A DNA stretch of 64,000 nucleotides, from assembly GCA_052148655.1 (NCBI GenBank), contig JBKQHU010000072.1, positions 3,128-67,127 on the forward strand. Direction: 5' to 3'. This document shows, piece after piece, positions 2,257 through 48,867 of the stretch (positions within the stretch are counted from its first letter, which is position 1; each line of letters begins with the position of its first letter). The DNA comes from Acidimicrobiales bacterium (GTDB taxonomy: Bacteria; Actinomycetota; Acidimicrobiia; Acidimicrobiales; Bog-793). The translations under genes and the position numbers were made by a program. The notes under the pieces are model-generated. The model did no database searches. It was not told the DNA's origin and saw only the letters and a program-made list of their open reading frames with translations.

Positions 2257-2549
2257 CGGGGAGATCCCTTCTAAAGGTCGCGCCGCGAAGCGGCGCGGGC
2301 GGCATTCCTCGGGCGGCACCGCGGTGAGTCACCTCTCCGGTGCAGCCGGACGGATTGCCGAGAATGAATGCAAGAGCACGTTCTTTGTCGTCTCGTTCGC
2401 GGGTCCGCGCGAAAGGTGGGGAGACGTTACGGTCGGTGACAGCGAAAATGACGTAGCAAGCTACGGCCGCAGCAGTAATCGACACGGCTCTGGCGACCGA
2501 GTTCGATTGTGTGAGGGGCCTTGACGTCGTCATCCTGGCCAGCAGTTTA
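2257..2549 (-). promoter_or_regulatory. putative rne promoter (-10 TAAACT) and long structured 5' leader
   Basis: TAAACT at 2549-2544 on minus strand; several nested inverted repeats between it and the RBS. Confidence 0.5.
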
Positions 2550-2658
2550 GTCACCACCCCGGTCCGCTCCGCGCCAAGGGGTCGACTGCTGGTAGCCTCT
2601 GCGCCTCCCGATCTGAGCAATGCTCCGAGGCGAAGCCCGGGATGCGTCCCAGAGGCGG

Positions 2659-4797
2659 TCAGGGAACGTTCGAGGGCGGCCGCAGGTCCGCGGAACCGAC
2701 GGGGTGGTTGGTCAGGTAGGTGAAGATCTCACGCGCCACGGGTGCCGCGGCGGCCGCGCCGTAGCCCGCCTGGTCGATCACCACGGCTACCACATAACGC
2801 GGCGCGCTCGTCGGTCCGAAGGCGACGAACCACGCCGTCGGCTGCACGTTCGTGTTCGAGCTCTCCGTGGCCGTGCCGGTCTTGCCGGCCAGCGGCATGC
2901 CGTTGTAGCCCTGGAACGTGGCATAGGCAGTGCCGTTCGGGGAGTAGATGGCGCCCTCGAGGCCGCTCAGGATCTGTTGATAGGTGCTCGGCGGGAGATC
3001 CACGTGACCCATGACGCGCGGCTTGAACTGTCTGAGCACCTTGCCGGTCGGCGACACGATCGAGTTGACGACCTGCGGGGCGTACCGGGTGCCGCCGGTC
3101 GCGAACGTCCCGTAGGCGACGGCCTCCTGAAGCGGCGTGACCAGGGTCTCGCCCTGCCCGAAGGCCATCTCGATGTTGTCGGCGATGCCGTAGTAGGTGC
3201 TCGGGAAGGCCTGCGGGGCCTCGGCGTGCTGGACCTGGCGCAGTCTCGGGCTGTCGACCTGGCCGGAGTACTCGTTCGGGAGGTCGATGCCCGTCGAGCG
3301 CCCGAAGCCGTACTGCTCGGCGACGTCCTGGATGGGCTCCTGGCCGTAGGTGCCCGAGTCGTACCAGTAGTCGGCCCCGAGGGTGTAGAAGAACACGTCG
3401 TCTGAGACCGTGAGGGCCGTCGTCACGTTTATCGGCCCCTGGCCCCTCTCGTTCAGGTTGTTGTAGTAGAGGCATTGTCCGCTACAGGGCGGCCCGATCT
3501 GGTAAAAGCCGCGATCGTCGATGTAACCCCCGAGACTGGCGAGAAGACCGTCGTTGAGCGCCGCCGTCGCGGTGGCGAGCTTGAAGGTGGAACCGGGGGC
3601 CCAAAGGCCCTGGACCGCCCGGTTTAAGAGAGGATCGTGATCGGCCTGGCTCGTCAGGAGCTGATAGTGCTGGTCGGAGATGCCCCCTACCCACCACGAC
3701 GGGTTGTACGACGGGACCGACGCCAGGGCGAAGACGGCCCCCGTCTCGGGGTCGAGCACCACCGCCGCGCCGGAGTCAGCCGGCAGGCCACTCGCCTGCA
3801 GCTTGCCGATCTGGTCGGTCAAGGCCTGCTCGACCTCCTGCTGCAGATTGAGGTCGACGTTGAGCACGACATCGTCACCGCTGGCCGGGGCCACGGTCTT
3901 CACCGTCCCGACCGGGTTCCCGGAGGCGTCGACCTTGATGACCTCCGATCCGGGCCGGCCCCGTAGCCACAGCTCGTCGGTCGCCTCGACGCCGGATTGG
4001 CCGACGACATCGTTGGAGCTGTAGCCGTACTTCGCCAATGCGTGCAGCTCGGCCGCGTCGATATCGCCCGTGTAGCCCAGCACCTGCGCCGCGGTGTCAC
4101 CGCGGGGATAGGTCCGCTCGGCCGTGAAGTTGACCGAGACGCCGGGGAACATGGCCTTGTGCTCGGCCAGGTAGACGATGGTCGACTGTGGTACCCCGAT
4201 CGCTATGGGCACAGGCTGGTAGGGGCTCGCCTGCGGGTTCGCGAGCGACGTGTTGACATCCGCCACGCTTTGTCCGAGCAGCGCCGCCAGGCGCCCGATG
4301 ACCGCAGGGGTCGCCGCCGAGCGGCTGAGCGAGACGACCGGGAGCACCTGGTCGCCCACGAGAACCTGTCCTCCCCGGGCGATGATCAGGCCGCGCGCCG
4401 GTGTGATCGGGACCGTCTGTTGTTCGTATACGAGAGCGGCGTTGCGGTAGTGGGAGCTGTGGAGAACCTGGAGGGACCAGAGCCGGACCACCACAGCCGA
4501 GAAGGCGACCAGCACGACCAGGCCCATGACCGTGAGCCGGAGACCGAAGCGAGCGCTCTCCTGTCGGCGCAGCTGCTCGCGTTCCTCCTCCTCGAGGCGT
4601 TTCAGCGGGCTCGAGCTGACGATCCGTGTTCTGTGCCGCTCGCCTTCTTCGTCGGCCGGGAAGTACGGCGCCTGCACGGGCTTTCCAGCTCGCGGGCGGG
4701 CCGGACCTCGTGCAACGCGCGAGGGACGCGGGTCTTTCGGTCGGCTGGGACGGCGGGACGGCTCCGGCGGCTCGGGACCTTCGCCCGAGGCGCTCAC
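2659..4797 (-). CDS. mrdA: penicillin-binding protein 2 (class B transpeptidase)
   Basis: N-terminal TM; PGSTFK (SxxK), SDD (SxN-like), KTGT; downstream of mreD. Confidence 0.95.
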   Translation of the reverse strand: MSASGEGPEPPEPSRRPSRPKDPRPSRVARGPARPRAGKPVQAPYFPADEEGERHRTRIVSSSPLKRLEEEEREQLRRQESARFGLRLTVMGLVVLVAFSAVVVRLWSLQVLHSSHYRNAALVYEQQTVPITPARGLIIARGGQVLVGDQVLPVVSLSRSAATPAVIGRLAALLGQSVADVNTSLANPQASPYQPVPIAIGVPQSTIVYLAEHKAMFPGVSVNFTAERTYPRGDTAAQVLGYTGDIDAAELHALAKYGYSSNDVVGQSGVEATDELWLRGRPGSEVIKVDASGNPVGTVKTVAPASGDDVVLNVDLNLQQEVEQALTDQIGKLQASGLPADSGAAVVLDPETGAVFALASVPSYNPSWWVGGISDQHYQLLTSQADHDPLLNRAVQGLWAPGSTFKLATATAALNDGLLASLGGYIDDRGFYQIGPPCSGQCLYYNNLNERGQGPINVTTALTVSDDVFFYTLGADYWYDSGTYGQEPIQDVAEQYGFGRSTGIDLPNEYSGQVDSPRLRQVQHAEAPQAFPSTYYGIADNIEMAFGQGETLVTPLQEAVAYGTFATGGTRYAPQVVNSIVSPTGKVLRQFKPRVMGHVDLPPSTYQQILSGLEGAIYSPNGTAYATFQGYNGMPLAGKTGTATESSNTNVQPTAWFVAFGPTSAPRYVVAVVIDQAGYGAAAAAPVAREIFTYLTNHPVGSADLRPPSNVP

Positions 4798-5391: not shown

Positions 5392-6225
5392 TCACGCGGG
5401 CGGGAACCACTGCAGCACGGCCAGGTACTGGAGGACGAGGAGGTTCACGAGCGGCGTCACGAGGACCTGGGACGTGAGCGACCCACCGGTGTGATGCACC
5501 GACGCCACGGTTCCCACCGGGATGCCCGATGGGTAGGCGGCAAGGTCGAGGCCGCTCGTGACTACGGCCGCGCCCCGGCTCGTGACGCTCGTCTCGGACA
5601 CATCCTGCAGTTGCAGGGGATTGCCTGCGCCCTGGCCGACGGCAACAGCGACGTTGCCGTTCCCGAAGCGGACACCGATCTCGGATCTGGGATCGGTCAA
5701 CACCTGGACGATCGCCGTGTGCTGGCCGGCCGAGATCACCGAGCCGACGAGCCCGACACCGGACACGACGGGCATCCCCACGCCCACCCCGTTCGCGGTG
5801 CCGCGGTCGATCTCGACCGTCAGGTCGAAATTCGACGACGGGGAGGAGATCACCTCACCCAGCACCTCTGGGATCCCGTCGGCGAAAGGAAGGTTCTGCT
5901 CCGAGCGCAGCTGGTCGAGCTGGCTCTGAGACTGCGAGGCTTCGATCAGCTGGCGACGGAGCTGGCCCACCTCGAGCTGCAGCCGCTGGTTCTCGCCGAG
6001 AGCGCCACCGTAGCCAGCCATCCCGGCGAACAGGTTGCCGATCGGGTGCAGCACAGCCGCAACGCCGCGCTGCAGCGGCGCGACCACGTCGGCGGCGCCG
6101 TTTCGGACCGAGCCGATGGCGCGCCGCGCTTCGCCCTTGTAGGCGACAGTGATCACTGTGACCGAGGCGAGAAGCAGGATGACCAGCGTGAGGCGCTGGC
6201 TGGTGTTGCGGCGAGAGGCGGCCAC
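5392..6225 (-). CDS. mreC: rod shape-determining protein MreC
   Basis: TM + coiled coil, IDRGTANGVGVGMPV, VVTSG...YPSGIPVG; start moved to GTG 6225. Confidence 0.92.
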   Translation of the reverse strand: MAASRRNTSQRLTLVILLLASVTVITVAYKGEARRAIGSVRNGAADVVAPLQRGVAAVLHPIGNLFAGMAGYGGALGENQRLQLEVGQLRRQLIEASQSQSQLDQLRSEQNLPFADGIPEVLGEVISSPSSNFDLTVEIDRGTANGVGVGMPVVSGVGLVGSVISAGQHTAIVQVLTDPRSEIGVRFGNGNVAVAVGQGAGNPLQLQDVSETSVTSRGAAVVTSGLDLAAYPSGIPVGTVASVHHTGGSLTSQVLVTPLVNLLVLQYLAVLQWFPPA

Positions 6226-6239
6226 CGCGACCCCGGAGG

Positions 6240-7271
6240 TCAGCGGTTGGTCGAGGAGATGAGGACCTGCTTCAGGGCCTCGAACTCCTCGAGGCACATG
6301 CCGCTGCCGAGCGCAACGCAGTTGAGGGGATCGGGAGCCACGACGATCGGCATGTGCGTCTCCGCCTGGAGCCTGCTGTCGAGCCCATGCAAGAGCGCGC
6401 CGCCGCCCGTGAGCACGATGCCTTGTTCCATGATGTCCGCCGCAAGCTCCGGCGGGGTGCGGTCCAAGGTGACCTTGACCGCGTCGACGATCGCCGAGAC
6501 AGGCTCTTCGATGGCCTTGCGGATCTCCTCGGTTGTCGTGACGACGGTCTTCGGAAGGCCGGTCACGAGGTCGCGACCACGGATCTCGGCGTGGAGCTCT
6601 TCTTCGAGCTCATAGGCGGATCCGAGGGCGATCTTGATCTCCTCTGCAGTCCGCTCACCGAGAGCGAGGCTGTACTCCTTCTTCACGAACGAGATGATCG
6701 CCTCGTCGAGCTCGTCTCCGCCGATCCGGATCGACTGGCTGACGACGATGCCGCCGAGCGATATCACCGCCACCTCTGTCGTGCCGCCACCGATGTCGAC
6801 GACCATGTTGCCGGTCGGCTCGTGGATGGGCAGGCCCGCGCCGATGGCGGCCGCCATGGGCTCTTCGATGATGTAGGCCTTGCGGGCACCTGCGTACTCG
6901 GCGGCCTCCTGCACAGCGCGCTTTTCGACCCCGGTGATGCCCGATGGCACGCAGATGACCATGCGCGGCTTGGAGAAACGATGGGGGTGGACACGGCGGA
7001 TGAAGTAGCGAAGCATCATCTCGCAGATCTCGAAATCGGCGATGACGCCGTCCTTGAGGGGCCGGATCGCCTGGATGTTGCTCGGCGTCCTGCCGATCAT
7101 CCGTTTGGCCTCGACACCGACTGCGAGCGGGTGGCCGTCCTTGACGTTGATCGCGACAACAGAAGGCTCGTTGAGAACGATCCCGCGACCACGGACGTAC
7201 ACGAGCGTGTTAGCGGTGCCGAGGTCGACGGCCATGTCACGACCGATGAAGGAGAACCTGCTCTCAGGCAT
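6240..7271 (-). CDS. mreB: rod shape-determining protein MreB
   Basis: [34 protein letters not shown]. Confidence 0.98.
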
Positions 7272-32335: not shown

Positions 32336-32409
32336 CGGGGCGTAGCGCAGCTTGGTAGCGCGCCTGCTTTGGGAGCAGGAGGTCCCCGGTTCAAATCCGG
32401 GCGCCCCGA
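32336..32409 (+). tRNA. tRNA-Pro(TGG), CCA not encoded
   Basis: CGGGGCG/CGCCCCG acceptor stem, CCTGC-TTTGGGA-GCAGG anticodon arm, GGTTCAAATCC T-loop. Confidence 0.97.
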
Positions 32410-32478
32410 CGTCGTGGCATCGTCGTGCGCCATCCGGGCTGGATGCCCGGCGGCCACGAGATAGCCTCAACGACGGTC

Positions 32479-32552
<74 letters not shown>

Positions 32553-38290: not shown

Positions 38291-39075
38291 GCTCTGTTCA
38301 ACGGCCTAATTGCAGGTCGTCGACGAGCCCAGGTGCAACTATTAGCAGGTGTAGAACGCTGCACGGGAGGCACTGCCCCGCCACCAAACCGGTGACGGTC
38401 TTCCTTACCTGCTCGTCGACTTGCAACACTCAGCCTACGCAGTCGCCTGAGGGGTTGCTTGGACCGTCAAGGTGCGTCACTTGGTCCACTCGCCAGCGCC
38501 AGTGCTCCCCCGCTGCGGCCGCCACGGTTACAGGATTTGACCTTTGTCACGCACCATCAGCTCCGAGACCCAGCTGACTCCAGAGCCAGCTCCATTAGGG
38601 TCGCCGGTCGCGGCTCGCGACCCGTCGCCGGGGCATAGGAGCGAGTGGCAGCCTGAGGCTCGTCAGGTGCCGTCTCGAAGTAGCGCGGCGGTGCTCCGTC
38701 ACGCTAGGCGGAGAGGAGTCGCGGGAATGCCAACCTGGACGGGCGGAGGCTTGGTCTTCAGTGGCAGCGGCCTAATGATGCACTCGATATAGCTGTAGAT
38801 CGGGACAGGTCAAATGGATGTTGCTGGTCGTGTGGAGTTGGGGGAGGATCAGCTTCGAGAAGAGCGGGATGACCTGATCGCACGCCTGGTGTACAGACAG
38901 ATCAAGGACAATCTGGAGGCCCCAGCCGAAACCGAAAAGACAGGCCGCCACGAGGGAAGACAAGACGGCGAGGGAGACGAGACGTTGAACCTTGCGGCCG
39001 AACGTGCCATCCAGGCTTGGACCGAACAAACCTCGCCAGTTGAACATAAGCCACGAACCAAACCCCTTCGGTGAC

Positions 39076-39282
39076 CTAGTCGTCGAGCAGCCGCTGCTCT
39101 CGACCGATCCGTTCCCGAAGGCTCTTGCGAAACTCGTCGTCTCCGCGTCGCTCCTCAATATGCCGAGCGATTGCCGCTCGGACAACCTCGGACACAGGGA
39201 GATCGTCCACCGTCGCGATGGTTTCCAGCTCCTCAGCCTGCTCGGGTGAGAGACGAACCGTCATGGCCTTAACCGGTTTCAT
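39076..39282 (-). CDS. ribbon-helix-helix (CopG-like) DNA-binding protein
   Basis: AMTVRLSPEQAEELETIA....VSEVVRAAI. Confidence 0.85.
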   Translation of the reverse strand: MKPVKAMTVRLSPEQAEELETIATVDDLPVSEVVRAAIARHIEERRGDDEFRKSLRERIGREQRLLDD

Positions 39283-39306
39283 GCGGTGATTATCGCGCTT
39301 GGTGGA

Positions 39307-39360
39307 GCGGTATGCAAGCACCGCGCTGATGTGGTATCATGGTGTCACGCCGAAAGGAGG
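39307..39360 (+). promoter_or_regulatory. extended -10 promoter, candidate operator and RBS of the Ubl operon
   Basis: GCGGT-N8-ACCGC at 39307-39324; TG-G-TATCAT at 39332-39340; AAAGGAGG at 39353-39360. Confidence 0.55.
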
Positions 39361-39365
39361 CCAGC

Positions 39366-39644
39366 ATGAGCCAAGACGACCCCGCCAGCGAGCGGCCACA
39401 CGAACACGAGTTCCACATCCAGATCGACCGCGAGCACTTCACTGTGCGCAAGGAAGAGCTGACTGGCGAAGAGTTGAGGAATTTGCCAAGACCACCGGTT
39501 CCCGCCGATCGAGATCTCTTCGAAGTGCGTCCCGGCGAGTCTGACTTACTGATCGAGGACACGACCGTCGTCAAGATTCACGACGGTCTGCGCTTTTTCA
39601 CTGCGCCGAGTCACATCAACCCCGGGGCCTATCAGACACGCTGA
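39366..39644 (+). CDS. ubiquitin-like protein (single multiubiquitin-type beta-grasp domain)
   Basis: FHIQID...LTGEELRNL...DLF...D..I.....V.I..G.RFFT..INPG plus AYQTR tail. Confidence 0.85.
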   Translation: MSQDDPASERPHEHEFHIQIDREHFTVRKEELTGEELRNLPRPPVPADRDLFEVRPGESDLLIEDTTVVKIHDGLRFFTAPSHINPGAYQTR

Positions 39645-39660
39645 CACCGAAAGCTCGATC

Positions 39661-40053
39661 ATGGGACTACTGCCTGAGGATGCTCGATACCTTGTCGACC
39701 GGAGGATCGCACACGAGGTCACGGAAGAGGCTGGCATGACGTGCGTCCTGCTGCCCGGGTGGCCGTTGCCGACCGGGTTGGACCACGGGCAGGTTGACCT
39801 TCTTATCCGACTGGCACCTGGCTATCCCGACATCGCTCCGGACATGTGGTGGGTTGATCCAGCGCTCCACACAGCTAGCGGTGCAACCATCCCCAACACC
39901 GAATCGGTAGAAGTGCATCTCGGGCGGCGGTGGCAGCGCTGGTCCCGTCACTTCAACCCGGGTCAATGGCAGCCGGGCATTGATCGACTCGAAAGCTATC
40001 TTGCGCGGGTCGCCGGTGAGCTTCAACGCATGGCGACCGGGAGTGCTGCGTGA
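39661..40053 (+). CDS. prokaryotic E2 (E2/UBC family E)
   Basis: LPTG...LLIRLAPGYPDIAPDMWWVDP, WQRWSRH, WQPGIDRLESYL. Confidence 0.9.
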   Translation: MGLLPEDARYLVDRRIAHEVTEEAGMTCVLLPGWPLPTGLDHGQVDLLIRLAPGYPDIAPDMWWVDPALHTASGATIPNTESVEVHLGRRWQRWSRHFNPGQWQPGIDRLESYLARVAGELQRMATGSAA

Positions 40054-41450
40054 ACGAGGCCACACTGGTCCTGCCACAGGAGATCGCAAAGGACATCGCG
40101 CGTGCCGCCCGGACGGACATCGAAGTCGCAGCGGTGATCTTGGTCGGTGCTGCTAACACGCGGGCTGGTCTTCGCCTACTCACTCGAGAAATCCATTGGG
40201 TACCCGCCGATTGCTACCAGCGGCAGACCTACAACTCTCTGAGTATCTCGTCGCACGGCTTTGTGCCAGCTCTTCGGAGGGCTGAAGAACTGTCAGCAAC
40301 CCCGGTGTTCCTCCACACGCACCCGGGGGACGATGCGGACCCACGGCCGAGCAAATGGGATGACATCGTGGACGAACAACTCGCCGATACCTTCAGAATC
40401 AGAAGTGGCTCGGACCGCTATGCCTCACTAGTTTTCTCACCAGCCCAGCGACTTTTCCGATTCAGTGGCCGAGGCCTGGACGACGATCAGCCATTTGAGG
40501 TTGGTCGCATCCTCGTAGCCGGCGACCGAATTGCGCTGCTCACATCGGTCAATGGAGATGCCAATAGTGAACTCTCGCCCATCTTCGATCGGCAGATTCG
40601 CGCGTTCGGCAGTAAGGTCCAACGAGTCCTCTCCAGCCTCCGAATCGCCGTCATCGGCTGCGGCGGCACTGGCTCCGCTGTAGCCGAACAGCTTGTTCGC
40701 CTGGGCGTTCGATCGCTGGTGCTTGTCGACAACGATGACCTCAACGAATCCAACCTGACACGAGTCTACGGGTCGAATCCCTCCGGCCTCGGCGAGCCCA
40801 AGGTCAACGTCCTCGCCAACCACCTGCTGCAGATCGCACCTGACCTCGACGTTACAGCTATCAAGAAACTTGTAACCGACGAGCTGACTGCACGAAGACT
40901 CACCGACTGTGACGCTCTCTTCGGCTGCACCGACGACAATGCCGGTCGGCTCGTCCTCGCCCGGCTCGCTAGTTACTACCTAGTGCCGCTCGTTGACTGT
41001 GGCGTTCTCATCAGCTCAACCTATGGAACGATCAACGGAATCGACGGCCGTGTGACGGTTCAAACTCCTGGCGCGGCATGTCTCGTGTGTCGCAACCGCG
41101 TCGACCTAGCACGAGCCGCGGCTGAGCAGCTCGACCCAGGTGAACGGCGACTTCGCCAAGACGAGGGCTATGCCCCCGAACTCGGGCGAGTTGAGCCAGC
41201 GGTCGTTACCTACACTTCACAGGTGGCCGGCCAGGCGGTCAGCGAACTCTTGGAACGGCTAATCGGTTACGGGCCGGAACCAGTGCCGACTGAAGTTCTT
41301 CTTCGTTTCCACGACCGCGAGATCAGTACCAATATCCAATCGCCAAAGACTGGCCACTTCTGCCACCCGGTTGACGGTTCGCTCGGTCGGGGCGACAGCG
41401 AGCCGTTTCTCAATCAGCTTTGGAGATCTCCGCGATGCGGTCTCCAATAA
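40050..41450 (+). CDS. JAB-like peptidase fused to ThiF/E1 adenylyltransferase
   Basis: N-terminal E...HTHP-x8-SKWD JAMM-like motif; FDRQ, GCGGTGS, DND.L.ESNLTR, K, GCTDD...R, CLVC. Confidence 0.92.
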   Translation: MNEATLVLPQEIAKDIARAARTDIEVAAVILVGAANTRAGLRLLTREIHWVPADCYQRQTYNSLSISSHGFVPALRRAEELSATPVFLHTHPGDDADPRPSKWDDIVDEQLADTFRIRSGSDRYASLVFSPAQRLFRFSGRGLDDDQPFEVGRILVAGDRIALLTSVNGDANSELSPIFDRQIRAFGSKVQRVLSSLRIAVIGCGGTGSAVAEQLVRLGVRSLVLVDNDDLNESNLTRVYGSNPSGLGEPKVNVLANHLLQIAPDLDVTAIKKLVTDELTARRLTDCDALFGCTDDNAGRLVLARLASYYLVPLVDCGVLISSTYGTINGIDGRVTVQTPGAACLVCRNRVDLARAAAEQLDPGERRLRQDEGYAPELGRVEPAVVTYTSQVAGQAVSELLERLIGYGPEPVPTEVLLRFHDREISTNIQSPKTGHFCHPVDGSLGRGDSEPFLNQLWRSPRCGLQ

Positions 41451-41803
41451 AGCGAACAGCGTGGTTGCCTCACTACCGCTTCTTCGTCGCGGGCGAAGTA
41501 GGTGCAGCAGACGAGATTCCAAAGCGACTGCCTCGCAAGGCCGTCATCTTGGTCTCACAAGCTGGGCGCGCAATGTGGGCGGCGTTTGATTGTCCGTGCA
41601 AGCGACGTCACCGCCTGATGGTGAACCTAGACTCGCGTCGAAAGCCATACTGGAGAATCGTGCCGACATCCGGTCTTACTTTGAGCCCTAGTATCGACAC
41701 GCTTGACCACGGCGTCCGTTGCCATTTTCTCCTTCGGTCCGGACGCGCTCAATGGGTGGGTGCGACATCATCAGTAGGAGGACAGAATGACGACTGTCGA
41801 TAA
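41435..41803 (+). CDS. DUF6527-like Cys/His metal-binding protein
   Basis: FDCPC....LMVNL....PYW....LTLSPSI......CHF.L..G...W. Confidence 0.8.
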   Translation: MRSPIKRTAWLPHYRFFVAGEVGAADEIPKRLPRKAVILVSQAGRAMWAAFDCPCKRRHRLMVNLDSRRKPYWRIVPTSGLTLSPSIDTLDHGVRCHFLLRSGRAQWVGATSSVGGQNDDCR

Positions 41804-42710
41804 AGGTGCCACTCCTGATAGCCAGCCGACCAACGAGCCGGCAAAGTCAATCCGCACGCCTTTTTATCGTGCGACCAACGCGCCTAGATACGAGCGTCAA
41901 GCTCAGATCCGCGCCATTCAGGACCTAACCAATAGCAGGCTCGTCTGCTATATCGGCGGACCACAGGCGTCCCTATCTCGAGATGACGCCCTGCCGCTAG
42001 TTGACCTTTTCCACACTATTCCCGCCGGATCGGACATCGACCTTCTGCTCCACACGGTCGGCGGTGACGTCGACGCAGCAGAAAAGATGGCTTCGATGCT
42101 GCGGAAGCGAGTAGGCGACAGGGCCAAGTTTCGCGTGATCGTCCCAGACCACGCCAAGAGTGCTGGCACACTGATAACCCTGGCAGCCGATACGGTCGTA
42201 ATGAGCGACAGCTCAGAACTCGGACCCGTTGATCCACAGCTAAACCTGCCTGACGGACACGGTCGCTTCAACTACCGACCTGCGCAATCGTACGTTGACG
42301 GGTACGAGGCGCTTGTCAAGCTGGTTAACGACAATCCCTCTGCGAGCGGCTACCGCCAAATGCTGGACAAGTACGACCCCACGACTCTTGATATGTGCAG
42401 GAAGGTCCTAGAACGCTCCGTGAAGCTCGGGGAATCCCTGCTTCAACAAGGGATGTTCAGAGGCGGAGGCGGAAACTTCACTGCGGTCGCGGGACAGCTT
42501 GCGGATAACCATAAGTGGCTATGGCACGGCGTGCCTATTGATTATATTGAGGCGAAGAAGCTTGGACTGAATGTCACTTACTTAGAACTGGACGATCCCT
42601 TGTGGCAGCAGTTTTGGGCGCTCTACTGCGCACAACGGCTTGAAGTGGGCAAAATATCCGAGGATTGCAAGCTGTTTGAATCTGATTACGTGTCTATTTC
42701 CATGCAGTGA
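41787..42710 (+). CDS. SDH-family ClpP-fold serine protease
   Basis: LLLHTVGGD, AKSAGT (Ser), ELGPVDPQ (Asp), WHG (His); AGGAGGA RBS; overlaps DUF6527 stop. Confidence 0.88.
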   Translation: MTTVDKGATPDSQPTNEPAKSIRTPFYRATNAPRYERQAQIRAIQDLTNSRLVCYIGGPQASLSRDDALPLVDLFHTIPAGSDIDLLLHTVGGDVDAAEKMASMLRKRVGDRAKFRVIVPDHAKSAGTLITLAADTVVMSDSSELGPVDPQLNLPDGHGRFNYRPAQSYVDGYEALVKLVNDNPSASGYRQMLDKYDPTTLDMCRKVLERSVKLGESLLQQGMFRGGGGNFTAVAGQLADNHKWLWHGVPIDYIEAKKLGLNVTYLELDDPLWQQFWALYCAQRLEVGKISEDCKLFESDYVSISMQ

Positions 42711-42947
42711 GCCTTTCCATCCGAGTGGTCAGACGACACAGGCGACTAGACAGCAAGTACCGCATTCATTCTTCGGATTTTATCCTTGACTGCCAGTCTG
42801 TAAATGTACCGTCCGGCTGGTAGTGCCCAGTACCTCTAAGTCCAGGTCAAAGGGCAATTCCGCAGAAGTCCAATGTTGCCTGGTTATGGCCAATCCGGCT
42901 AAACGTAGCCAGTATGGCTATCAACTTGGCTACATTTTCGGACATAA

Positions 42948-43000
42948 CAAAAGCCCAGCCGAAACAGAGGGCTCGAGCCGGGAAGGCGTTTCACTGGGCT
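42948..43000 (-). terminator. putative intrinsic terminator after integrase 3
   Basis: minus strand AGCCCAG-TGAAAC...GTTTC-GG-CTGGGCT followed by TTT. Confidence 0.5.
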
Positions 43001-43081
43001 AGCGCCAGGCATCACCGGAGGCTCATCGGGGTCGGCCACGCCTTGCGCCGAGTGCAGGGCTCGGGATCTCGGCGCAGTTCT

Positions 43082-44197
43082 TCATCGCAAAGCCCTGGAC
43101 ATCGCGTCTGCGGCCTGCCTGTTGGTTTCCGGCGATACATGGCCATAGATGTCGGCAGTGATGCGGATGGACGCATGACCGAACACACGGGACACAACCT
43201 CGATGGGGACACCTTGGGCGAGCATGATCGTGGCCGCTGAGTGGCGCAGGTTGTGCCACGGCATCGAGGCCAACCCCAGGTTGGCGCTGACCCTGTGCCA
43301 GTGCTTGCGAATGTTCGAGTCGTACAATGCCGTGCCCCGCGCACTCGTGAAGACGAGATCGTCGCTGCCTTGTGTCCCTTCGAAATTCTGGCGGACCTGG
43401 TGAACCCGCAGAGACTCCATGGCCTGCGGGGTGAGCGGCACGGTTCGGCGGGACTTGTCGGTCTTCGGATCAGTGCGCTGCCTGACCTTGCGATCAAGTG
43501 TGCCGGTGACTAAGAGAGTGCCAGCTTCGAGGTCGACATCGGACCACCTGAGCGCCAACAGCTCTCCTTGACGTAGGCCGGTGTGGATCGCGACCACGTA
43601 GAGAGGGAGCAGCCGGTCGTCGTGCAAGGTGTCGAACAGTTGCTTGGCTTGTTCTGGTGTCAGCACCGGTCGTTCGTCCACCTTGACCGCAGGGGCATCT
43701 GTGAGAGCTACGACGTTGCGAGCGACATAGCCTCTGCGCTCGGCTTGTCCGAGTGCCCGTCGCAGGATCGTGCGGGCGAGCCGTTGTGTGTTGCCACTCT
43801 TTTCAGCTTCGGCGAGCGTTCGGCCCATCTTCTCAACATCTTCAGGTGTGAGGCGAGCAAGGCGGATGTGGCCGAGATGGGGTCGGACGTAGAGATTGAC
43901 GACCTCCCTGTAGCTACGCCGCGTCGATGCCTTCAGCTTTCCTGTGGCGTCGAGGCCGTCCAACCATTGATCGAGCCATGCAGACACGGTCATGTTGCCG
44001 CCTGTGGTCACGATGCCCTTGTCCCTGGCGTCCTGTGCCGCCTTGAGCTTGGCCTGAACCTGTCTCTTGGTCGAGCCGTACACCGTTTTGCGAAGACGCT
44101 TGCCGTTCGAACCCTTCCCGAGTTCGACCGTGGCAACCCAGCGGCCGTCGCTCTCTCTCTGGAAGATGCCACCCTCGCCTGATCCTCTTCTGGCCAT
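43082..44197 (-). CDS. tyrosine recombinase/integrase 3
   Basis: RRGSGEGGIFQR..DGRW arm-binding N-terminus, TGLRQGELLALRWSD, PKT, WHNLRH, FGH, IYGH. Confidence 0.97.
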   Translation of the reverse strand: MARRGSGEGGIFQRESDGRWVATVELGKGSNGKRLRKTVYGSTKRQVQAKLKAAQDARDKGIVTTGGNMTVSAWLDQWLDGLDATGKLKASTRRSYREVVNLYVRPHLGHIRLARLTPEDVEKMGRTLAEAEKSGNTQRLARTILRRALGQAERRGYVARNVVALTDAPAVKVDERPVLTPEQAKQLFDTLHDDRLLPLYVVAIHTGLRQGELLALRWSDVDLEAGTLLVTGTLDRKVRQRTDPKTDKSRRTVPLTPQAMESLRVHQVRQNFEGTQGSDDLVFTSARGTALYDSNIRKHWHRVSANLGLASMPWHNLRHSAATIMLAQGVPIEVVSRVFGHASIRITADIYGHVSPETNRQAADAMSRALR

Positions 44198-44831
44198 CCA
44201 ATTCCCTCGTCCTCGAGGCCGCTCGCCGACCGGTCCGCAGTCTACCCAGTCAGGATGTCTTCAACCCAACACCTTGCTCCGCAAGGATTTTCTCTCCTAT
44301 TGCTTGGCTACACTTGGCTCAAGTCGCTTGAGCACAGTCACGATAGGGCAATCGTCAACGTGACACAAGGAAGCACGGGGGCGGCCGGACCGGCCAAAAG
44401 CGGTGCGGCCGGACGGCACGGACCGCCCCGACCAGGACCGGAAGCAAGAACGAGGCTCCGACGAGCCTAGGCGCCCCGCCGGGCGCCACGGCGGCCCAGA
44501 CGGGGCCGACCGGGGCGGCCGGCGGAAGGGGGAAGGGGGGTCGGGGTCGTAGATCTTGGCTTTCTCGGGGTTCTCAAGAAGGTACAAGAGGGCTAGCCGC
44601 CTGCGGCAACCGACGAACGGCTCATGGCCGATCAGCTACGCAACGTCGCGATCTACTTGGACTCATTGCCGCCCACCGCTTGAGCGAATCGTTCTTAGGT
44701 GCCTCGCCGAGACGGACTCCGGACGTCGGGCGTCTGGAGAAAGCACCGTCCGTCTCCACGACCCCCTCCCTCCCCTCCTCGCCCCGCCGGCCGCCGACTC
44801 CGACTGCGGTCGCCTCGCCTCGAGGCTCACC

Positions 44832-45380
44832 CTATGCGCCAGCCGCTTCAACGAGCCCGCGCACGTCGGCCAAGCTCAGTCTCAAGGTCGGGCGATCGCC
44901 TAGCGCCCGAGCTACCGCCGTCACGGCCGGGCCCAGCTGTCGCACCTCAATCAAGGTCGACCTCGACACGGTCGCGAAGGGTATACCGAGTGCCGCTTCG
45001 AGCGACTCTTCGGTCTGCGCGTCGCGGAGGCCGGCGCAAACTCGCCAGCTGTTCAGATCGGCGCGGTACGAGTCCTTCAGGGTGTGCTCGAATGCCGCCC
45101 GCTCGGCTAGCGCGCCGGCAAGGCAGAAGCGGAGCGACCCGACCGGGTCGGCCGCGACCGCGGCGCGCAGGTGATCGACCGACTCGAGCCGGACCCCGCC
45201 GCCGGTGAAAGCTCCGACCTCGTTCGGGTGAAGGGTCGGATCAGGGTTGATGGAAACGTCGACGAACTCGATGCCGTGCTTGACTGCTACAACGGCGTGG
45301 CCAGCCTCGTGAATCACAGCATGGCTGAGGCCTCCGTGCCGCAGGCAGAGTGAGTTCCAGAGATCCAAGCTCGCCTTCAT
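44832..45380 (-). CDS. stand-alone zinc metallopeptidase domain, FtsH/M41-like
   Basis: HEAGHAVVA...LAGALAE...DL; ATGA-coupled to the upstream gene. Confidence 0.75.
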   Translation of the reverse strand: MKASLDLWNSLCLRHGGLSHAVIHEAGHAVVAVKHGIEFVDVSINPDPTLHPNEVGAFTGGGVRLESVDHLRAAVAADPVGSLRFCLAGALAERAAFEHTLKDSYRADLNSWRVCAGLRDAQTEESLEAALGIPFATVSRSTLIEVRQLGPAVTAVARALGDRPTLRLSLADVRGLVEAAGA

Positions 45381-46276
45381 CCACCCGAATCCCCTCTACC
45401 TCCTCGCGCAGCCGAATCGTCGCAGGTCCTCTCCACCAGGCTTGCTTTGAAGTCGTCAGGAAGCGCTGCGACCGCCGTGGCAAGAGAGGGATGAATGGCC
45501 CCGGACGACACAGACTTGAGGGCAGCACATGCCAAATCGCGAAGATACTTGGAGGATGCAAAGACTCCTTCCTTGGCGTAGACGTAGAGGAAGTACTCGA
45601 TCTGATCCGGCTCGCAGCCGCCAGTCGCCGAGAGAGCTGACAACTCCTTGGACCAGAACCCAAGAGCTCGGCAGTAGTAGTCGTAGCGCGCGCTCGGGGC
45701 TGATGGCGGACTCCATCTCGCACCGAGCATCGTGTTAACGAATGTCAGGGTCCGGTGGACCCGCTCGTCATAGATAAGCGGTCGACTGTCCAATGGCCAA
45801 CACTCTGCGGAAAGACCCTTTGTGAGAAAGTACAGGTACTTCGTAAAGAACGATTCTCCGTATCCCTCGATACTCGGCGTCGAGGTGAACGCCTGATACA
45901 GCCTCACGAGGTTCCCGGACTCGAGAGCCTTCAGGACGTCAGCGGTGACCTTCGCCACATTGGGCGAGGCGAGCGTCCTTGCCGCGTGCCCGCGAGAGTT
46001 GACTCCTCGGCTGCCAAAAATGAATGTTGCGACCACTAGTTCCGGAGCCGCTGTTCCAACACCCTGGCGCGCGGCGGCGCCCAATTGAAACAGGTCGTGG
46101 CGAGTCAGCGACTTGGCGCCGAAGCGTTCCGCGAGCGCTAGGACTGGACCGCATTGGGGAAACCTCTCACGCCACGCGTCTGGAGTCTGTCCAGCGCCGT
46201 GATCTGCGACGGTGACGCTGACCACGTCAGTCACGTGGGACTGTAGAAAATGAGGCAGCGTGGGTAAGTTGCTCAT
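45377..46276 (-). CDS. OGG-fold (8-oxoguanine glycosylase-like, HhH) protein
   Basis: IEGYGESFFTKYLYF, PLIYDERV, Y..Y, DQIEYFLY. Confidence 0.75.
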   Translation of the reverse strand: MSNLPTLPHFLQSHVTDVVSVTVADHGAGQTPDAWRERFPQCGPVLALAERFGAKSLTRHDLFQLGAAARQGVGTAAPELVVATFIFGSRGVNSRGHAARTLASPNVAKVTADVLKALESGNLVRLYQAFTSTPSIEGYGESFFTKYLYFLTKGLSAECWPLDSRPLIYDERVHRTLTFVNTMLGARWSPPSAPSARYDYYCRALGFWSKELSALSATGGCEPDQIEYFLYVYAKEGVFASSKYLRDLACAALKSVSSGAIHPSLATAVAALPDDFKASLVERTCDDSAARGGRGDSGG

Positions 46277-46325
46277 CTTGGTCTCCTTCGTTATGTCGCG
46301 TAGCGGAGCCAGTCCCAGCTCGTTC

Positions 46326-47918
46326 TCAGCTGTGGCTGTGAAGTGCGATCACGAGCCCGACGATGGCGATAGCGACCGCTATGGCCGCGATATACAGGGC
46401 TCTCCTTTGTAACCGAACGCCGGTCGCGGCGGCGGTGACACTTCCGATCGTCTCCAGTGTGTCCGAGAGTCGCCCGATCAATCGCTCGAGCTTGGCGACT
46501 CGGTCGGAATACTCGGCCCGCATCGAGGCCGCAAGTGTCGTCACGACAGAAGGCTGCCTCTCGGATAGTTGTAGGAAGGAAGGAAACTGCCACTCGAAGC
46601 TTGTCGACTGCTGGGTAACTAAGTCTCGCAACTCGTCTGCCGAGATCGCGACATCGATAGCGACGGTCTTCAGATACACCTGCAGCCCGTTCAGCGCCCG
46701 AATCGTCCTCCAGCGACCCCAGCGTCGCGACGACAGGTCTCGCGATAAAGAGCCTTGTGCTTCCCAGACCTCTGCCAGAGATCGGAGACCCCACGCAGCG
46801 AGGAGCCCGTCCCACTCGACATCGCGTAAGGCGTCCGGAAGGTCCGATCGTGAGCCCGTCGGCGCGACCGTGGAAGCGGCTGGGAGGTGGCTCCGTGCGG
46901 CGGCGAGAACCAGGTTGTGCCGTACCCGAGGCTCCTCGAAGCCGAGAGGCACCTTCGCTCTGAGGCCGACTGGATCCGTGCATATCCATACCTCACCCAT
47001 GACACCATCGAGGTCGCACGCGTGGAGCCAACGCGCGGAGCGGCTGAGGAACCTGCCCTGTAGTGGTGTCTCGCCATCGACGACAACGAGCTCGGCGGTC
47101 GGCACAGCGCCTCTTGTCGACTTGCTACTGAAGATCCCCGGGACCTGTCGAATCAACCAGCGATGCGCCTCCCTATGGAGCTGGTCGCGCCACATGTGAA
47201 CTTGCTCCGCCTTGACATTCTCGGCGAAGGTGCTGCCGATCGCGCCACCGTGCTCGCGCGTAATGCGGTCAGGAGTGGGGGCACGAAGCAACGACTCGAT
47301 CTCGCCGGCGGCGTCATCGGTGAGGGTAAATTCAGCAATCACCGCGTTGATGGTGCGTGTGACACTAGCGATTCGTAGCTCCACTCGCGAGAATTGTCGG
47401 GGTAGGTCGCGCGCCTTGCTCGCCCTGTCAAACAGCCCGACTGGACCGGCGCGGGTGAACGTTCCGATACCACGGGAGCCCTCGAAGGGTGCGCGACCAC
47501 GAATGTCCATCACCCACTCGTCGAGCTCATGCTGCTCCAATCCGAGTCGTCCCCTTCTTAGGGCTCGAAGAGCGGCATCGACCGTTGATGAGGTAAGCAT
47601 CTCGACTATCCAAAGCCGCGTGAGTGATAGATGCGCATCAGCGGGTGGGGTGTGCAACTCACTCTGTGTCGCGTAACGCTGTCTTGCCATCGCAGACATG
47701 TGGATGAAGCTGTGGAGCTGGGTCCCGAGGCGCCGCAAGTTCGCGGGGACGAGGTGGCGTAGGCGGCCCCGCGGAAATGAAAGCCAACTTGTGACCTGTC
47801 TTACGGTCTTGCCGCGTCGGATGGTCTCGTCCCTCGACACGAGCTCGATCAGGACAAAGACACGGGCGAGGAGCGTCGACCCTGCCCGGGACGCTGAGCG
47901 CCGCCACCGACGGATCAT
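46326..47918 (-). CDS. hypothetical protein with C-terminal coiled coil and TM helix (start uncertain)
   Basis: long ORF co-oriented with neighbours; ends RLQRRALYIAAIAVAIAIVGLVIAL. Confidence 0.7.
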   Translation of the reverse strand: MIRRWRRSASRAGSTLLARVFVLIELVSRDETIRRGKTVRQVTSWLSFPRGRLRHLVPANLRRLGTQLHSFIHMSAMARQRYATQSELHTPPADAHLSLTRLWIVEMLTSSTVDAALRALRRGRLGLEQHELDEWVMDIRGRAPFEGSRGIGTFTRAGPVGLFDRASKARDLPRQFSRVELRIASVTRTINAVIAEFTLTDDAAGEIESLLRAPTPDRITREHGGAIGSTFAENVKAEQVHMWRDQLHREAHRWLIRQVPGIFSSKSTRGAVPTAELVVVDGETPLQGRFLSRSARWLHACDLDGVMGEVWICTDPVGLRAKVPLGFEEPRVRHNLVLAAARSHLPAASTVAPTGSRSDLPDALRDVEWDGLLAAWGLRSLAEVWEAQGSLSRDLSSRRWGRWRTIRALNGLQVYLKTVAIDVAISADELRDLVTQQSTSFEWQFPSFLQLSERQPSVVTTLAASMRAEYSDRVAKLERLIGRLSDTLETIGSVTAAATGVRLQRRALYIAAIAVAIAIVGLVIALHSHS

Positions 47919-47991
47919 CGGCTCGACTCGCCGACGCGGTCTTGCGGCAAAGTCCCGCGAGAGCGGTTCGGCGAAGCGCCGCTCCCAATCA

Positions 47992-48867
47992 TCACGACTT
48001 CTGACCGCTCACGGCGATGGCACGGCTGCGGCGGGCCTCAAGAGTCTCCAGCAACATGCGGCAGTAGGTCGTCGCTGCTCCGACGGCGAGGTGAGCGTGC
48101 CGCGGCCCAAGACCCACCGTCGGGGTGGTCCTCCCGTGGTCGAGTCCGTACTCGTTGCGGAGTTCGGCGATGCCGATGGCAACCTGGGAGAGGTTGGAGA
48201 GGATTCGCTTGGTGGTCTCGGCTCCCTTGGCAGACGGGGCGAGTGACGACGGATCGAGTCGGAGCGCCTTCTGTGCGGCCTTCACGAGGGCAGGGACGTC
48301 CGCTCGCTCGTCGTAGGGCTCCCCCAGTTCGTGGAGAACCGTCTTGGTGGTCGCTTCGACGAGGGCTTTGGCACCGCTGATCGCCACCGGCACGTCGGTA
48401 TCCATCGCCCCCGCAATGCGATCAAGGTGTTCCATGACGGCCGCCGGTTGGCGAAGTCCGGCAAGGTTGAGTTCGGCCGTAGTCGTCGAGAGCATGGAAG
48501 ACATAATCCGCCCAGAGTCGTCAACCGAGTATCCGTCCCGTTCGAGATGCCGAACGAGCTGAGTCCTGCGTTCAATCCCGAACTCGTTGTCCTTGGCGAG
48601 CCACGACAAGATCTCCTCGAAGACGTTGAGGATTCGCCGTACGTCACGGGGGTCGGACCAGTCTGTTCCGTAGGAGTAGCGGTCGAAGGTCCCGCGCCGT
48701 TGGCCCGGGCTGTACCAACCGCCAGCCCCGGCCTGCTGGTCGTCCGCGGGATCGAAGCCCTCATTCTCAAAGGCTTGCTCAATCTGGCGGACGGCGGCGG
48801 CGTCACTGCACGTCTCACGGAAGCCGTTGCGAGTCCGCCTGTGGATGAGGTCAGTCATGCCCGCCAC
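47992..48867 (-). CDS. abortive infection family protein (AbiJ-like N-terminus + Abi_C/HEPN)
   Basis: AISGAKALVEATTK, ELRNEYGLDHGR, RHAHLAV; N-terminal I...FENEGF, QRR, DWSD...L..FE. Confidence 0.85.
   Translation of the reverse strand: MAGMTDLIHRRTRNGFRETCSDAAAVRQIEQAFENEGFDPADDQQAGAGGWYSPGQRRGTFDRYSYGTDWSDPRDVRRILNVFEEILSWLAKDNEFGIERRTQLVRHLERDGYSVDDSGRIMSSMLSTTTAELNLAGLRQPAAVMEHLDRIAGAMDTDVPVAISGAKALVEATTKTVLHELGEPYDERADVPALVKAAQKALRLDPSSLAPSAKGAETTKRILSNLSQVAIGIAELRNEYGLDHGRTTPTVGLGPRHAHLAVGAATTYCRMLLETLEARRSRAIAVSGQKS

Follow-up and report, generated by a model that had tools for sequence, protein, structure and literature searches.

The SDH-type serine protease encoded at positions 41787..42710 (+ strand, 307 aa, ATG start) of a 64,000-nt stretch of DNA from an Acidimicrobiales bacterium (Bog-793; assembly GCA_052148655.1, contig JBKQHU010000072.1) was found to be the conserved fifth gene of a ubiquitin-like conjugation operon assignable to the Type I Bub class, and to be co-inherited with the Bub genes across at least six phyla, which shows that the coupling is old. 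The stretch is referred to below as the window, and window positions are given in its coordinates. The operon consists of five tightly packed + strand open reading frames (ORFs) spanning 39339-42710, with products of 101, 130, 466, 127 and 307 aa: a ubiquitin-like protein (Ubl, BubA), an E2-like protein (BubB), a JAB/JAMM-E1 fusion (BubCD), a DUF6527 protein (BubE) and, as the final gene of the + strand run, the protease. The protease start and the bubE stop (41803) overlap by 17 nt, and a ribosome-binding site (AGGAGGA), read from the sequence, is located at 41776..41782 (+), inside the end of bubE and 4 nt before the ATG. The protein itself carries the motifs AKSAGT (residues 123-128), GPVDPQ (146-151) and WHG (246-248). 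A first-pass annotation of this DNA had described the overlap, the ribosome-binding site, the three motifs and the last-gene position, and every one of these details was confirmed by ORF and sequence reading. Membership of the protease in the cassette is almost certain, and it probably serves a distinct Bub subfamily as an output module and not as part of the core machinery.

The linkage between the protease and the Bub genes was surveyed from both sides. Species-representative genomes were scanned with the protease alignment, which yielded at least 575 relatives; the 80 best loci were then searched by tblastn with the Bub proteins of the window. Bub genes were present at 66 of these 80 loci (Ubl at 63, E2 at 65, JAB-E1 at 66 and BubE at 65) and lay directly upstream of the protease save in L071 (downstream), L085 (1.6-kb gap) and L100 (BubE not detected). 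The 66 linked loci were distributed over Pseudomonadota (25), Actinomycetota (16), Chloroflexota (10), Acidobacteriota (9), Planctomycetota (2), Gemmatimonadota (2) and unnamed phyla (2). Independently of the protease, metagenomes were scanned with the JAB-E1 protein of the window, and among the best 80 of 377 relatives (52-65% identity) 63 loci carried the protease right after BubE; 11 loci end within 437 bp of E1 and are not judgeable, while 6 have room and no protease, giving 63 of 69 evaluable loci. The recurrence of the same gene order in 66/80 and 63/69 loci far exceeds chance. The first-pass annotation had named two findings that would speak against its proposal, namely that close protease homologues occur independently of Ubl operons and that close operon homologues lack the protease; the former are mostly Bub-linked and the latter mostly carry the protease, so neither objection holds.

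The spacing between the BubE stop and the protease start was determined over both surveys (126 loci, with start codons chosen heuristically): it was -4 in 48 loci, the two genes overlapped by 1-35 nt in 76 (including those 48), and gaps of 1-30 nt and 31-125 nt were present in 32 and 12 loci, respectively, the remaining 6 of the 126 being outliers from ORF calling or, in the case of L071, reversal. An apparent fusion of BubE and protease in L059 was rejected, as translation shows a stop between both genes. Metatranscriptome contigs from four runs map to all five genes at 99% identity or more, and one contig, at 41671-41824, runs across the protease start and extends 38 nt into the protease gene; this is a weak hint of joint transcription, given that the contigs show no single transcript and that RNA libraries can contain DNA. 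Stretches of the operon to which no contig of these runs maps carry no information. The stretch also occurs in soil and peat metagenomes.

Among plasmids, the association is confined to one group of E1 proteins. Plasmid records with a BubCD-like protein (E 1e-25 or lower) numbered 66, of which 7 encode a protein 47.8-56.0% identical to that of the window and 59 one of at most 35.6% identity. The former seven are exactly the only plasmid records with the protease, and no protease match at E 1e-20 was obtained in the 59 others. The Methylocystis bryophila plasmid carries the full cassette together with the divergent regulator gene described below, its protease being annotated only as 'hypothetical protein'. 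Within a sample of 401 genomes from the window's own phylum (tallies that include the unpublished genomes G082, G336 and G088), BubE scored above its cut-off in 5 and a close protease was present only in the window's own genome, the next-best protease match having an E value of 2.8e-48; three further operons examined in this sample (G079, G039 and G372) are of Type II and lack the protease. A more distant Type I Bub operon on a Sinorhizobium alkalisoli plasmid (L232), in which Ubl and E2 are fused and a helicase lies upstream, carries a gene other than the protease at 5702-6418, 14 nt past DUF6527; it encodes 238 aa, has no annotation and may be a further occupant of this fifth slot.

The joint history of protease and Bub genes was further evident from trees. 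In an unrooted protease tree of 126 rows, all 114 Bub-linked rows fell on one side of a single branch (support 99), and the 12 others formed one clade composed of 10 free-standing rows and 2 with cut flanks. Protease and E1 distances were correlated over 111 loci (Mantel correlation 0.763, reached by 0 of 999 permutations), which shows joint inheritance and not physical contact, a figure that shared descent alone would raise. At 14 of the 80 protease-seeded loci Bub genes were lacking; two of these (L088 and L105) have less than 900 bp of upstream sequence, and the other twelve sit among integrases, transposases and unrelated genes. A conserved neighbour or partner of the Bub-free proteases was sought at the 14 loci and none was found. 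At one of the free-standing loci, a SMODS/CD-NTase-like nucleotidyltransferase (L113:9095-9829, - strand) lies about 250 bp from the protease.

Beyond these close homologues, 1466 protease relatives were recovered at E 1e-5 or lower among 2974 candidates scored. Distant relatives (26-35% identity; phrog_11747, function unknown, E 2.6e-45) were located in 27 phage or prophage contigs (L204-L230), and Bub genes were found in 0 of these 27. Where neighbours were scanned (12 of the 27 contigs), the viral relatives were accessory in their placement, with lysis, polymerase, tail or unknown genes nearby. An origin from a head-maturation protease of phages was considered and rejected: the NCBIfam and PHROG head-protease models match weakly and only over residues about 78-148, and in the 12 scanned contigs the phage relatives are not beside portal or capsid genes. 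The window's genome additionally encodes a second, more distant SDH-type protease on another contig (C21:2532-3155, - strand; locus L002), a 364-aa open frame with a PF01972 score of 65.7 bits and an E value of 1.3e-30 to the alignment of database homologues (A1), located away from any DUF6527 gene.

The protease scored 68.3 bits with the SDH_protease family (PF01972; cut-off 31.3, E 7.5e-19), with residues 66-153 alone matching the profile well (profile positions 76-160 of 286) and a divergent C-terminal half. This family is defined by a catalytic Ser, Asp and His in that order, an order which S125, D149 and H247 follow in the sequence of the window protein. These three residues and K124 do not vary in alignment A1 (49 rows) or in any of the 132 proteases from related loci; judged from its sequence, the gene would thus encode an active Ser125/Asp149/His247 ClpP-fold protease with an invariant Lys124. 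The score against the NCBIfam model NF047768 ('SDH family Clp fold serine proteinase', Clp_like_SDH) was 85.3 bits versus a cut-off of 250, and the protein is a divergent relative of that family and not the named equivalog. No ClpP family of Pfam or NCBIfam was among the protease matches.

The AlphaFold2 model of the protease (predicted local distance difference test score, pLDDT, 91.4; predicted template-modelling score 0.86) comprises a disordered N-terminus (residues 1 to about 22), a core of the ClpP/crotonase fold, in which K124-S125 and D149 lie, and a C-terminal half that is helical and contains H247. Among ATP-independent ClpP-fold peptidases of solved structure, matches were obtained to ClpP (9dqk_A; VIA-align Z 13.3, 175 residues aligned, root-mean-square deviation 4.0), to the 1510-N stomatin-specific (NfeD-type) protease (2deo_A; VIA-align Z 11.9) and to SppA (4kwb_A; VIA-align Z 11.8), at sequence identities of 11-18% and Foldseek E values of about 5e-5. 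ClpP uses a Ser-His-Asp triad, while 1510-N and SppA use Ser-Lys dyads; the window protease therefore has its fold in common with ClpP but differs from it in presenting its residues in the order Ser-Asp-His. To our knowledge, none of ClpP, 1510-N and SppA is tied to a ubiquitin-like system.

The four genes upstream of the protease, together with a divergent ribbon-helix-helix (RHH) gene, correspond by their domains and motifs to a Type I Bub (6E.1/DUF6527) operon; of the earlier designation 'Bil/Bub', the Bub part stands and the Bil part does not. The bubA product (39339..39644, +) matched Multi_ubiq (PF14452; 35.6 bits versus a cut-off of 24.5) and contains one beta-grasp domain; Gly96 is the last residue of the conserved RFFTAPxxINPG stretch, beyond which lie five tail residues (AYQTR). 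In alignment A2 (71 rows), G96, P95, I93, P90, F87 and R85 are invariant and M10 nearly so, and Met10 (39366) is a likelier start than the annotated one. Since relatives carry variable tails of 0-14 residues after the Gly, the Ubl is made as a precursor. The bubB product (39661..40053, +) matched Prok-E2_E (PF14462; 5e-36) and is encoded by an ORF separate from that of the Ubl, so that the fused BubAB pre-protein is not found in the window. Single Ubl-E2 ORFs (223 and 229 aa) were observed among the relatives only in L037 and L168. Because the classic Synechocystis operon on pSYSX is also unfused, the fusion is a variable family feature that does not exclude membership of Type I Bub.

The catalytic residues of the conjugation proteins were likewise retained. 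BubB contains a W-S95-R-H97 motif in which S95 and H97 are at least 97% conserved (131 rows), whereas its sole Cys (C28) is not invariant, and it would therefore appear to employ a Ser with a nearby His and no catalytic Cys, as is characteristic of Type I. BubCD (40050..41450, +) matched ThiF (PF00899; 5.3e-38), its JAB domain being recognised from the motif with no Pfam call; the JAMM residues E25, H89, H91, S101 and D104, the GxGxxG nucleotide loop of the E1 (203-208), R181/R184 and Y374 within an invariant EGYAP are at least 97% conserved (126 rows). By analogy with Y370 of Ye et al., Y374 may be the E1 nucleophile. BubE (41420..41803, +) matched PF20137 at 55.7 bits versus a cut-off of 23.6 and possesses the Ser-His pair and zinc-type Cys residues of DUF6527 (S91, H102, C58 and C101, at least 97% conserved in 133 rows); it is a putative Ser-His peptidase and deconjugase, by analogy with the function given in the available text of PMC11601596. 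In PADLOC-DB 2.0, no defence family matched the protease, Ubl, E2 or BubE, and the E1 alone matched the CBASS (cyclic oligonucleotide-based antiphage signalling system) 'E1-E2' models. The divergent RHH gene (DUF6290/CopG-like; 39076..39321, -) scored 20.5 bits against RHH_1, equal to the cut-off, and 25.3 against DUF6290, below the cut-off of 27; its product matched the transcriptional repressor PHROG 876 (1.3e-05), it is probably the transcriptional regulator of the cassette, and its true start is probably an internal Met near 39282. A homologue holds the same divergent position at 96 of 128 related loci, that of Methylocystis bryophila being annotated as 'DUF6290 family protein'.

Type I Bub operons (BubAB, BubCD and BubE) were described by Ye, Gong, Chambers & Corbett (bioRxiv 2024, PMC11601596), in whose available text oxyester intermediates form on a tyrosine of the E1 and on a serine of the E2, the latter with a nearby His (mutant S333A/H335A), the JAB domain cuts the Ubl-E2 pre-protein, and the Ser-His peptidase BubE (DUF6527) takes Ubl off targets; there, the operons conjugate Ubl, with targets and biological role given as unknown. 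The window operon resembles this description in its Multi_ubiq Ubl, Prok-E2_E, JAB-E1 fusion and DUF6527 in the same order, and also in the E2 Ser-x-His, the E1 Tyr in an invariant loop, the JAMM motif, the BubE Ser/His, the precursor Ubl and the mobile-element location. It differs from the published scheme, as far as that text sets it out, in its separate Ubl and E2 genes, in its fifth gene and in its regulator, which is a divergent RHH protein rather than CapW/BrxR or CapH with CapP. The E1 is at most 36% identical to that of other plasmid-borne Type I operons. Similarly, the operon around sll6052 on pSYSX of Synechocystis sp. PCC 6803, the classic 6E example (Iyer et al. 2006, PMC1779556, available text), has an unfused multiubiquitin, E2/UBC, ThiF-type E1 and DUF6527 in the same order, but it stops after DUF6527 with the next genes on the other strand, its regulators are of the HTH and ImmA/IrrE types, and its E1 is 34.1% identical to that of the window.

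The protease, for which the first-pass annotation had put the operon forward as a candidate for an undescribed system variant, is unmentioned in the available Bub and 6E texts. The main texts of two Bub preprints (one of them PMC11601596) mention no ClpP, SDH, effector or deaminase, although Table S1 of PMC11601596 (544 operons) may list such cassettes, and the available text of the survey that defined the 6E operons (PMC1779556) mentions no ClpP or serine protease. A literature search, with supplementary tables outside its reach, returned no text in which Bub/6E operons are connected with an SDH/ClpP-like protease or with a dCTP deaminase, and no paper on the function of the SDH family Clp fold protease subfamily. 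The nearest conceptual parallels are the Pup-proteasome and archaeal SAMP-proteasome systems, in which a small protein tag is coupled to a self-compartmentalising protease. Pup and SAMP tagging use ATP-dependent unfoldases and 20S proteasomes, whereas the window cassette encodes no ATPase and has a ClpP-fold Ser/Asp/His protease; no homology is implied.

Examination of the protease-less operons identified a second gene type at the end of the operon. All six E1-seeded loci lacking the protease (L154, L156, L157, L158, L179 and L186, about four of them distinct in sequence) encode a protein of about 527 aa in the position after BubE, and the Pfam domain dCMP_cyt_deam_1 was detected in each of the six products; that of L186 scored 402.9 bits with NF041025, the model for the anti-phage dCTP deaminase, whose cut-off is 400 (E 1.7e-120). 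Over both surveys the deaminase was present in 17 of 160 loci, 11 of which (L102, L147, L149, L174-L176, L181, L182, L187, L192 and L194) have it behind the protease, on the same strand and at gaps of about 5-78 nt. It thus holds either the slot directly after BubE (6 loci) or the one after the protease (11 loci); it is unrelated to the protease, acts on nucleotides and is absent from the window. The initial notion of a clean swap of one effector for the other was revised, given that 11 loci have both genes in series. All deaminase loci except L102 belong to one 20-row subclade of the E1 tree, within which the deaminase-only state needs 2-3 changes, and the likely history is that the deaminase was added behind the protease and that the protease was then lost 2-3 times in this subclade. 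These arrangements show that the operon end is a place for output or effector genes and that the Bub lineage travels with a proven anti-phage gene. Furthermore, the conjugation chemistry can dispense with the protease, since Ubl, E2, JAB-E1 and BubE are all retained in sister operons from which it is missing.

The explanation that we favour as a whole, though tentatively, is that the protease is the translationally coupled fifth gene of a distinct Type I Bub subfamily and acts as its output arm, cleaving tagged proteins. In this scheme the JAB domain would trim the Ubl tail after Gly96, the E1 (through its Tyr) and the E2 (through Ser95) would hand the Ubl to lysines of target proteins, BubE would reverse the conjugation, and the protease would bind the Ubl moiety and cut the protein that bears it, or an exposed part of that protein. 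As an unfoldase is lacking, cleavage directed by the tag is envisaged and not complete degradation, and this cleavage step in itself is the more doubtful part of the scheme. Modelling of the protease-Ubl complex gave interaction prediction scores (ipSAE) of 0.49, 0.52 and 0.01 (median 0.49), compared with 0.00 for the best of three controls; the runs agreed in at least 61% of contacts and the partner pLDDT was at least 71. In the calibration of the predictor, 58 of 80 solved complexes attained its mark, as did 2 of 110 mismatched pairs; those that did so with scores of 0.60 or less were only 7 of the 80 solved complexes and both of the mismatches. The prediction lends weak support to binding of Ubl by the protease. 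A role of the cassette in defence against phages or mobile elements is suggested by its context. It is unlikely, although conceivable, that the cassette constitutes a minimal ubiquitin-protease pathway in which the operon's ATP-independent ClpP-fold protease reads the Bub tag and cuts a tagged phage or host protein, with the deaminase as an alternative or added output.

Several observations weigh against a protease that acts on tagged proteins. The score band of the protease-Ubl prediction is one that the predictor rates more often wrong than right, and a ClpP-fold protease without an unfoldase cannot degrade folded proteins. The six operons (about four of them distinct) that keep Ubl, E2, JAB-E1 and BubE without the protease imply that tagging must serve a purpose independent of it; conversely, the 12-row Bub-free clade and the more distant relatives in the 27 viral contigs work without a Ubl system. 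The deaminase is a known single-gene defence, and its presence may show only the clustering of defence genes. Moreover, Gong et al. consider, in the available text, Ubl conjugation in bacteria unlikely to be a degradation signal, and the tested Bub operons gave no phage protection in E. coli according to the available text of Ye et al. (PMC11601596). The tag-and-degrade system proposed in the first-pass annotation is consequently not established: the complex prediction is weak, and the idea is weakened further by the protease-less four-gene operons and the free-standing clade.

Three other explanations were weighed against this tag-directed cleavage. The protease may be a conjugation-activated toxin of an abortive infection system, inactive until Ubl modifies it or a partner and then cutting essential host or phage proteins whether tagged or not, with the dCTP deaminase as a second or alternative effector of the same switch. 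Such a role would fit the occupation or extension of the same slot by a known self-sufficient anti-phage effector, the free-standing and phage-borne relatives, which show that the protease family needs no Ubl, and the proximity of the cassette to integrases, transposases and other defence-type genes, while the weak protease-Ubl prediction is accommodated equally well. There is also a precedent in the Type II CBASS E1-E2 ligase, which modifies the signalling enzyme of its own system (PMC11601596, available text). However, no immunity or antitoxin gene is conserved beside the protease, and the deaminase may be just an independent neighbour; we therefore regard a toxin as improbable. The variable C-terminal tail of the Ubl, which must be removed, the translational coupling of the protease gene to that of the deconjugase BubE and the weakly predicted protease-Ubl contact would all agree with a housekeeping function, in which a third peptidase processes the Ubl precursor, detaches Ubl from targets or carries out the turnover of free Ubl or BubE, as a regulator rather than an output. 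Yet two peptidases directed at the Ubl, the JAB domain and BubE, are already present in the operon with their active sites intact, and these cleave the precursor and the conjugates, respectively, in the available text of Ye et al. (PMC11601596). Protease-less sister operons, furthermore, keep tailed Ubls (L154, L179 and L186), from which it follows that Ubl maturation does not need the protease, and the protease is also lacking from the more distant Type I operons of 59 of the 66 plasmid records, including Synechocystis pSYSX. Such a function is thus very unlikely, and the tailed Ubls likewise make the second deconjugase considered in the first-pass annotation unlikely.

Finally, the protease could be a passenger, that is, an independent mobile-element gene with a single-gene defence or a plasmid or phage function, which became fixed downstream and is co-transcribed without any functional link. 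In agreement with this, free-standing relatives adjoin integrases and transposases, the phage relatives have lysis, polymerase and tail genes as neighbours and lie outside the head module, and an integrase is the next gene in the window. Against it stand a single origin after which the gene was kept in all 114 tree rows that lie outside the free-standing clade, over six phyla, the stop/start overlap in 76 of 126 loci, and the correlation of protease and E1 distances (r 0.763), though shared descent alone raises that figure. Loss of a passenger would, in addition, be expected at far more than 6 of 69 loci, and the deaminase stands in its place at each of those six. We consider a mere passenger as improbable as a housekeeping peptidase.

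The protease and the deaminase are the first candidate output modules for a Bub pathway, and the deaminase of some subfamily members provides a direct link between Bub operons and anti-phage defence. If it is true that the protease reads the tag, this would overturn the stated expectation that bacterial Ubl tagging is no degradation signal; a minimal ubiquitin-protease pathway, if real, would be the first case of a bacterial ubiquitin-like tag acting as a signal for proteolysis and would supply the missing output of Bub. The cassette is available in cultured strains, namely Methylocystis bryophila DSM 21852, Rhizobium sp. CCGE531, Microbacterium sp. SGAir0570 and Phenylobacterium sp. LH3H17.

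With respect to the surroundings of the cassette, a scan of 38800-43200 for promoters and terminators gave no signal exceeding shuffled expectation. The next gene, 371 nt past the protease, encodes a tyrosine integrase (43082-44197, -); no attachment site is assignable because the nearest tRNA genes (Pro and Gly, 32336-32552) are about 7 kb off the cassette. The integrase opens a run of - strand genes (43082-48867) that continues with a 182-aa protein of weak M50-peptidase similarity (44832-45380, -), an OGG-like PF21790 protein (45377-46276, -) whose gene overlaps the preceding one by 4 nt, a protein of 530 aa to which no Pfam family matched (46326-47918, -) and, at 47992-48867 (-), an Abi_C protein. 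This run looks like a defence island on an integrative element. In 11 related loci, including alphaproteobacterial plasmids, a Fic/DOC-family gene with a small upstream partner adjoins the RHH gene (for example L073:4638-5222, L203 on a Rhizobium plasmid, 2478-3256, and L233 on a Methylocystis plasmid, 2671-3461), the two probably forming a toxin-antitoxin pair.

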